This document shows, in pieces, positions 19,262 to 19,770 of a stretch of DNA of 64,000 nucleotides; the stretch's first letter is position 1; every line of letters begins with the position of its first letter. The notes beneath the pieces were generated by a model, which was not told where the DNA came from, ran no database searches, and saw only the letters and a program-made list of their open reading frames with translations. Position numbers and translations under genes: made by a program. Origin of the DNA: Enterobacteria phage GiZh; the sequence record NC_054903.1. One strand, written 5' to 3'.

Positions 19262-19322
19262 TTGATGAGATAATAGTATCACTACCTCATCAACGTGTAA
19301 ACAACTTTGTGAAATTATTTTA
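19262..19322 (-). promoter_or_regulatory. early-promoter/stem-loop cassette (PeSL-like)
   Basis: Same core flanked by inverted repeat ttgatgag/ctcatcaa; gtaaac 19297-19302. Confidence 0.5.
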
Positions 19323-19770
19323 AATCATCTGCCCAATCAAGTTTAAGAGGCTCTTTATATTCACGATCTAATACGACCGGAATTTGTACATCACCGCTAA
19401 ATGATAAGGGCCCAACATTATAAGACAATGTTATATGCGGTGTGTAATCATCAAAATCATGTGTAGCACCTAGTGCCCGCGCATACATGTGTCGACAGCG
19501 CAGATATTCAGAATCTAGCACAAGTACAAGAGTCGATCCATCTTGTGTTTTCCATACTTCTAAATGTCCAGAAGAAGCTACTTCAAAACTTCCGCTTGAT
19601 GGAACATACGGAACATTTACTCTTGAATAACATATGGTCGAATGAATTTTTTCTCTAGGAACTGGATTAGGAACACGTAAAGAGCGCTGGAGTTCTTCCA
19701 GCGCATCAAGTGTTAATTCTGAAAACTTAGCTGCTACATAAAGACCCGTTGAAAAGTCTTTAAATTCCAT
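19315..19770 (-). CDS. 57B: 57B protein (2H phosphoesterase; Acb1 anti-CBASS nuclease family)
   Basis: 151 aa at the 57B position upstream of 57A; HxT-like motifs (PHITLSY). Confidence 0.75.

Follow-up and report, generated by a model that had tools for sequence, protein, structure and literature searches.

Orthologues of the T4 anti-CBASS genes acb1 and acb2 in a T4-like phage genome segment

Does this stretch of phage DNA carry intact counterparts of both genes by which T4 evades CBASS immunity, acb1 (gene 57B) and acb2 (vs.4)? We examined this question in the whole stretch of 64,000 nucleotides, hereafter called the window. A first-pass annotation had proposed a 2H phosphoesterase of the Acb1 family at the 57B position and, by synteny only, a possible Acb2 sponge at the vs.4 position, and had suggested that the two would together endow the window with anti-CBASS functions. 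This proposal held: both T4-type genes are intact, and they are very probably orthologues that work by the T4 mechanisms, their functions being extrapolated from T4. The integrity of the genes, their identity, the conservation of experimentally tested residues, the hairpin fold of Acb2 and synteny were observed directly in this analysis.

Genomic setting and gene models

The window is a segment of a Tequatrovirus (T4-like) genome with about 97% identity to sequenced relatives. When a 25-kb query was taken from it, at least 80% of the query length was matched in about 350 sequenced Tequatrovirus genomes, the best matches being Escherichia phages AndreasVesalius, JLBYU31 and others (96-97% identical). 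On the minus strand, a first block of genes runs vs.1, regB, vs.3, vs.4, vs.5, vs.6, vs.7, vs.8, and a later block comprises the tRNA cluster, followed further on by internal protein genes, 57B, 57A, gene 1, gene 3 and gene 2. Gene order at both the acb1 and the acb2 locus agrees with the T4 and T2 maps. The regions that hold the two genes are conserved in about 490-500 phage records; the anti-CBASS gene pair, conserved in hundreds of Tequatrovirus genomes, is a usual feature of such phages.

The gene 57B homologue, acb1, occupies positions 19315..19770 (minus strand), begins with ATG and encodes 151 amino acids, predicted to form a 2H phosphoesterase that cleaves cyclic oligonucleotide immune signals. 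Its assignment to the 57B position was borne out by its neighbours, as it lies directly downstream of the homologue of 57A (tail-fibre chaperone, 19770..20012, minus strand; Pfam GP57, E 5e-51) and of the gene 1 dNMP kinase (20012..20764, minus strand; Pfam DNMK, E 5e-104). Pfam and PHROGs matches of the neighbours, set against the T4 and T2 maps, gave a gene order of T4 type (gene 1 - 57A - 57B - internal protein genes). In the DNA alignment with T4, 7 of 456 nucleotides differ inside the open reading frame (1.5%), and all seven changes are synonymous. An eighth difference lies just upstream, where a G-to-A change converts ATGATG into ATAATG; it removes the extra first methionine of T4, turns the 57A stop from TGA into TAA and leaves a TAATG stop/start overlap (19768..19772, minus strand) coupling 57A to acb1.

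At the vs.4 position, between the homologues of vs.3 and vs.5, the longest open reading frame spans 8776..9078 (minus strand), and this was the extent given in the first-pass annotation. The frame does exist at this position, but its 5' end had to be moved from the TTG at 9078 to the ATG at 9042..9040. The methionine equivalent to this ATG is the first residue in the T4 annotation, in the 88-residue T4 protein and in the construct that was crystallised, and a GAGGA ribosome-binding site is present 8 nt upstream of it (9051..9055, minus strand). We therefore placed acb2 at 8776..9042 (minus strand, 88 amino acids), which is probably the true gene; its product is predicted to be a helical hairpin forming a hexameric cyclic-dinucleotide sponge. 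The remaining segment (9043..9078, minus strand), which begins with the TTG, contains the GAGGA and is embedded in the 3' end of vs.5, is probably a non-coding 5' extension. The 100-residue TTG-initiated model was rejected, as its 12 additional codons fall within vs.5 and the T4 start is the internal ATG preceded by GAGGA.

The acb2 stop overlaps the vs.3 start in TAATG, and there is an 8-nt overlap between the acb2 ATG and the end of an intact 73-residue vs.5. In T4, where vs.5 is frameshifted, the annotated vs.5 and vs.4 are for this reason separated by a gap of 36 nt. As for vs.5 itself (9035..9256, minus strand; PHROG 1986), the frame is intact in the window, and full-length copies were found in 985 phage records, down to about 45% identity in Klebsiella phages. 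T4 vs.5 (L001:5382-5558) carries a 1-nt deletion, from TTTCGCCGAG to TTTCG-CGAG at about window position 9207, which shifts the frame after codon 17. The annotated 58-residue T4 Vs.5 is thus probably a frameshifted product, and the annotated T2 vs.5 is likewise in a shifted frame.

Both acb1 and acb2 appear to be internal cistrons of minus-strand polycistronic units with overlapping stop and start signals. In promoter and terminator scans around the two genes, consensus hits were not enriched relative to shuffled sequence, and neither gene was assigned a promoter of its own; their expression is therefore assumed by extension from T4.

The vs.4-position product as a homologue of T4 Acb2

In pairwise BLASTP, 83 of the 88 residues of the acb2 product are identical to T4 Vs.4 (94%, E 1e-62), and the product matched the Vs.4 structure PDB 7UQ2 with E 3.6e-53. 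The Pfam Acb2/Tad1 hairpin family (PF24729) was matched at 70.5 bits (cut-off 27, E 1.4e-19) over all 58 profile positions (1-58). These matches raise the Acb2 call from synteny only to direct homology and, judged by them, the vs.4-position product is genuinely homologous to T4 Vs.4/Acb2. T4 Vs.4 (7UQ2; Jenson 2023, PMC10097602) is also of equal length, and its gene is likewise flanked by vs.5 and vs.3.

A single-sequence AlphaFold model (pLDDT 87.2) consists of a two-helix hairpin with helices at residues 11-45 and 50-81 joined by a loop at 46-49. When this model was compared with the PDB by Foldseek, 7UQ2 came first (E 8e-10, TM 0.74), followed by Acb2 of Pseudomonas phage PaMx33 (8H2X/8H2J, TM approximately 0.71-0.72). 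PaMx33 Acb2 (8H2J, 8H2X, 8IXZ; Huiting 2023, Cao 2023, PMC10312549) has the PF24729 family and the fold in common with the window protein, and its dinucleotide-binding residues Y11 and K26 correspond to window Y8 and K23. Its sequence is distant: the Foldseek alignments show an identity of only about 24-26%, and the direct match to 8H2J/8IXZ was weak (E approximately 0.04).

T4 Vs.4 assembles into a hexamer that holds three cGAMP molecules with a Kd of approximately 30 nM (Jenson 2023, PMC10097602). In its structure, base stacking is provided by Y8 and F82, and hydrogen bonds and salt bridges by H11, K23 and R79; the mutations S74N and T12I abolish function, and hexamerisation depends on L29, A66, A73 and A77, and to a lesser degree on F33 (PMC10097602). 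All six residues of the cyclic-dinucleotide pocket (Y8, H11, K23, S74, R79 and F82) occur at the same positions in window Acb2, and the Tyr8 codon, which specifies the residue that pi-stacks on cGAMP, is intact (9019..9021, minus strand). The hexamer-interface residues L29, F33, A66, A73 and A77 and the helix cap T12 are conserved as well, and so is L60, another residue that Jenson 2023 (PMC10097602) tested or described. Thus every experimentally important residue is retained in the protein that had been named a possible Acb2.

PaMx33 Acb2 also binds cyclic trinucleotides, through a pocket with R67 and T74. T4 Acb2 has D61 in place of R67 and T68 as the equivalent of T74, and it binds the cyclic dinucleotides bound by PaMx33 Acb2 but not cA3 or cAAG, even after a D61R change (Cao 2023, PMC10312549). 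The window protein lacks this pair of pocket residues and has D61/T68 as T4 does, which leaves its family membership unaffected since the trinucleotide pocket is a feature of only some Acb2 members. Binding of cA3 is consequently not expected.

The five differences between window Acb2 and T4 Vs.4 are E13D, L44F, N46S, C50D and F52L, and the last four form a cluster at the predicted hairpin tip (8887..8913, minus strand). This raises the question whether the allele encodes an Acb2 with shifted ligand spectrum, affinity or oligomer stability. The Panoptes (OptSE) system, for example, fires once Acb2 depletes its decoy 2',3'-c-di-AMP (PMC12657218), and the allele could have been tuned away from this decoy. 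There are reasons to consider such a shift. Among six neighbouring genes, divergence from T4 is greatest in vs.4 (7.1% of nucleotides) and least in acb1 (1.5%), and four of the five non-synonymous codons of vs.4 fall within nine residues; conflicting selection on Acb2 in nature has been argued in the Panoptes paper (PMC12657218), and T2 has in fact lost Y8. Nevertheless, a ligand contact or a place in the hexamer interface has been published for none of the five substituted positions, and in the AlphaFold model the ligand-contact residues lie near both chain ends, away from the tip. Synonymous changes also outnumber non-synonymous ones (11 versus 5 codons), and neighbouring vs.3 has changed to a similar level relative to T4 (4 non-synonymous), so this patch of the genome may be merely more variable or mosaic. 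A functional shift is for these reasons considered very unlikely, and in our view the hairpin-tip cluster is no more than usual allelic or mosaic variation.

The allele is by no means private to the window, as it recurs at 99% identity or more in 58 phage records by tblastn (for example slur14, at 100%); at least 80% of the Acb2 protein is covered in 1,226 records. It is conceivable, if very improbable, that L44F/N46S/C50D/F52L mark a second widely circulating Acb2 allele kept by selection and not a neutral or mosaic variant, for example because it changes ligand preference or evades a host factor, such as a Panoptes-type guard, that senses Acb2 or the depletion of its ligand.

The vs.4 gene of phage T2 (NC_054931; L002:5591-5851) lies at the same locus and is nearly identical to that of the window from residue 9 onward. 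It differs by a 2-nt deletion at codons 7-8 (window 9019..9024) that eliminates the IKGY N-terminus, with loss of Tyr8, whereas the window gene is intact. Due to this deletion, the annotated T2 vs.4 product begins at an alternative TTG. This deletion fits a comment made in the Panoptes paper (PMC12657218).

The 57B-position product as an Acb1 phosphoesterase

All 151 residues of the acb1 product are identical to residues 2-152 of T4 gp57B/Acb1 (NP_049750.1; E 2e-116, pairwise BLASTP), and the genomic position is the same. The only difference is the extra N-terminal methionine of the T4 protein; the T2 57B protein is identical to that of the window and shares the 151-residue form without it. 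The Pfam Acb1 family (PF23474) was matched at 202.7 bits (cut-off 27, E 2.6e-60) over the full profile (1-144 of 144). Assignment to the Acb1 family was thus confirmed, and the alignments with both T4 proteins are far beyond chance.

The first-pass annotation had also mentioned HxT-like motifs. Both are real: the first is H43-S44-T45 (19636..19644, minus strand; T4 H44/T46), aligned to the corresponding H..T of Erwinia phage FBB1 Acb1, and the second is H112-I113-T114 (19429..19437, minus strand; T4 H113/T115). The tetrad of two histidine/threonine pairs, defined as catalytic for T4 Acb1 (H44/T46/H113/T115; Hobbs 2022, PMC9117128), is therefore intact in the window product, with neither catalytic histidine lost. 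The residues of the C-terminal lid are also the same as in T4, given the sequence identity.

FBB1 Acb1 (PDB 7T26/7T27) is a more distant orthologue from another phage and host, with many substitutions scattered along the protein. It can be aligned over its full length and shares both HxT motifs; its own 2H phosphoesterase architecture was established by crystallography, and the window product matched 7T26 with E 4.1e-62 over residues 8-148. A single-sequence AlphaFold model of window Acb1 was unusable (pLDDT 37.9), so the 2H fold is predicted by alignment to the solved homologue. As the protein is identical to the tested T4 protein, sequence could not support its function more strongly.

According to a different reading, the 57B homologue would be mainly an RNA-repair enzyme, either a LigT-like 2'-5' RNA ligase or a cyclic phosphodiesterase, for which cleavage of cyclic oligonucleotides is incidental. 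The 2H superfamily includes LigT-type enzymes, which counts in favour of such a role, as does the 'RNA ligase' label in the RefSeq T4 record and in PHROG 755. This label is, however, derived from homology and not from experiment, and the family matched here is specifically Acb1. T4 57B was recognised as Acb1 when fractionation was guided by cGAMP-cleaving activity; its structure with bound cGAMP reveals a dedicated pocket and lid, lysates of T4 without acb1 lose the cleavage activity, and H44A/H113A kills the activity of the protein (PMC9117128). Against this evidence, the 'RNA ligase' function was rejected as an outdated homology label, and a primary role in RNA repair is almost certainly not the case.

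That one or both frames are decaying remnants, unexpressed or non-functional in the phage, as might be suspected from damage in related phages (the T2 vs.4 deletion that removes Y8, or the premature stop in PaMx41 acb2; PMC12657218), is equally hard to believe, since both are of full length with intact starts and stops, the changes of acb1 relative to T4 are only synonymous, and acb2 has its ribosome-binding site and all key residues.

Proposed mechanism, annotation and neighbouring loci

From published T4 experiments we infer catalysis, ligand binding, hexamerisation and the anti-CBASS effect in vivo for the window proteins. In this model, Acb1 would act as a metal-independent 2H phosphoesterase whose HxT/HxT tetrad cuts the 3'-5' bond 3' of adenosine, hydrolysing cyclic di- and trinucleotide signals via a 2',3'-cyclic phosphate intermediate. 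Its expected substrates are 3'3'-cGAMP, cUA, cAAA and cAAG, but not cGG. Due to cleavage of the signal, CBASS effectors would never be activated. The 88-residue hairpins of Acb2 would form a hexamer with three cyclic dinucleotides bound in pockets, each between two protomers, by stacking on Y8 and F82 and by contacts with H11, K23, R79 and S74. cGAMP would thereby be sequestered with an affinity of about 30 nM and the threshold of effector activation raised. Cyclic trinucleotides would be left to Acb1, as Acb2 is expected not to bind cA3, and the two proteins would jointly hold effector activation below threshold.

Like T4, the window phage thus carries both layers of CBASS evasion, degradation by Acb1 and sequestration by Acb2. 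Resistance to many CBASS systems that signal with cGAMP, cUA or cAAA can be predicted. By extrapolation, a phage with intact acb2 should also trigger guard systems such as Panoptes (OptSE) and be sensitive to them.

The acb1/acb2 content is already known, since descriptions of T4 Acb1 and of T4 Vs.4/Acb2 appeared in 2022 and 2023, respectively; the practical value of the present analysis lies in annotation, and no open question is advanced by it. Annotation of both genes lags behind the literature. The 57B/Acb1 product is labelled 'RNA ligase' in the RefSeq records of T4 and T2 and in PHROG 755, and in most related GenBank records the acb1 and acb2 products are each a 'hypothetical protein', with 'anti-CBASS protein' used in a few recent ones.

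Several other loci of the window deserve mention. Next to acb1 there are two small internal-head-protein genes (18675..18974 and 18985..19242, minus strand; PHROG 8111 and PHROG 3499), in an arrangement that recalls T2 ip7/ip5; in T4, the interval from trna.4 to 57B instead holds ipI, whose product is the anti-GmrSD internal protein. Both small genes are preceded by promoter-like TTTACA-17-TACTAT sites extended by TG (18971..18943 and 19301..19273). T-even phages are known to be polymorphic at their internal-protein locus, and the region seems to be this locus.

The tRNA cluster (16831..17661, minus strand) comprises ten genes (Arg, Asn, Tyr, Met, Thr, Ser, Pro, Gly, Leu and Gln) and resembles the T2 arrangement. 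In contrast, the T4 cluster has eight genes and lacks the Asn, Tyr and Met genes found here. Within the array at 16831..17661, there was no tRNA-Ile gene and no interrupting open reading frame of segB size.

At the tk.4 position, an open reading frame of 159 amino acids (6614..7093, minus strand) encodes a Macro domain (Pfam PF01661, E 6e-8), and its product is possibly an ADP-ribose-processing enzyme. A 337-residue product (593..1606, minus strand) matched the Pfam family RlaP, an RNA repair pathway nucleotidyltransferase of the DNA polymerase beta family (E 3e-11); a 'nucleotidyltransferase' is annotated in the same region of related phages. Finally, between vs.8 and denV, there is an open reading frame for a 157-residue protein (10632..11105, minus strand) that matched DUF7412 from end to end (E 6e-96). 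It is equal in length to the T2 gene annotated as ipIV; in T4, by contrast, ipII/ipIII are located downstream of denV.
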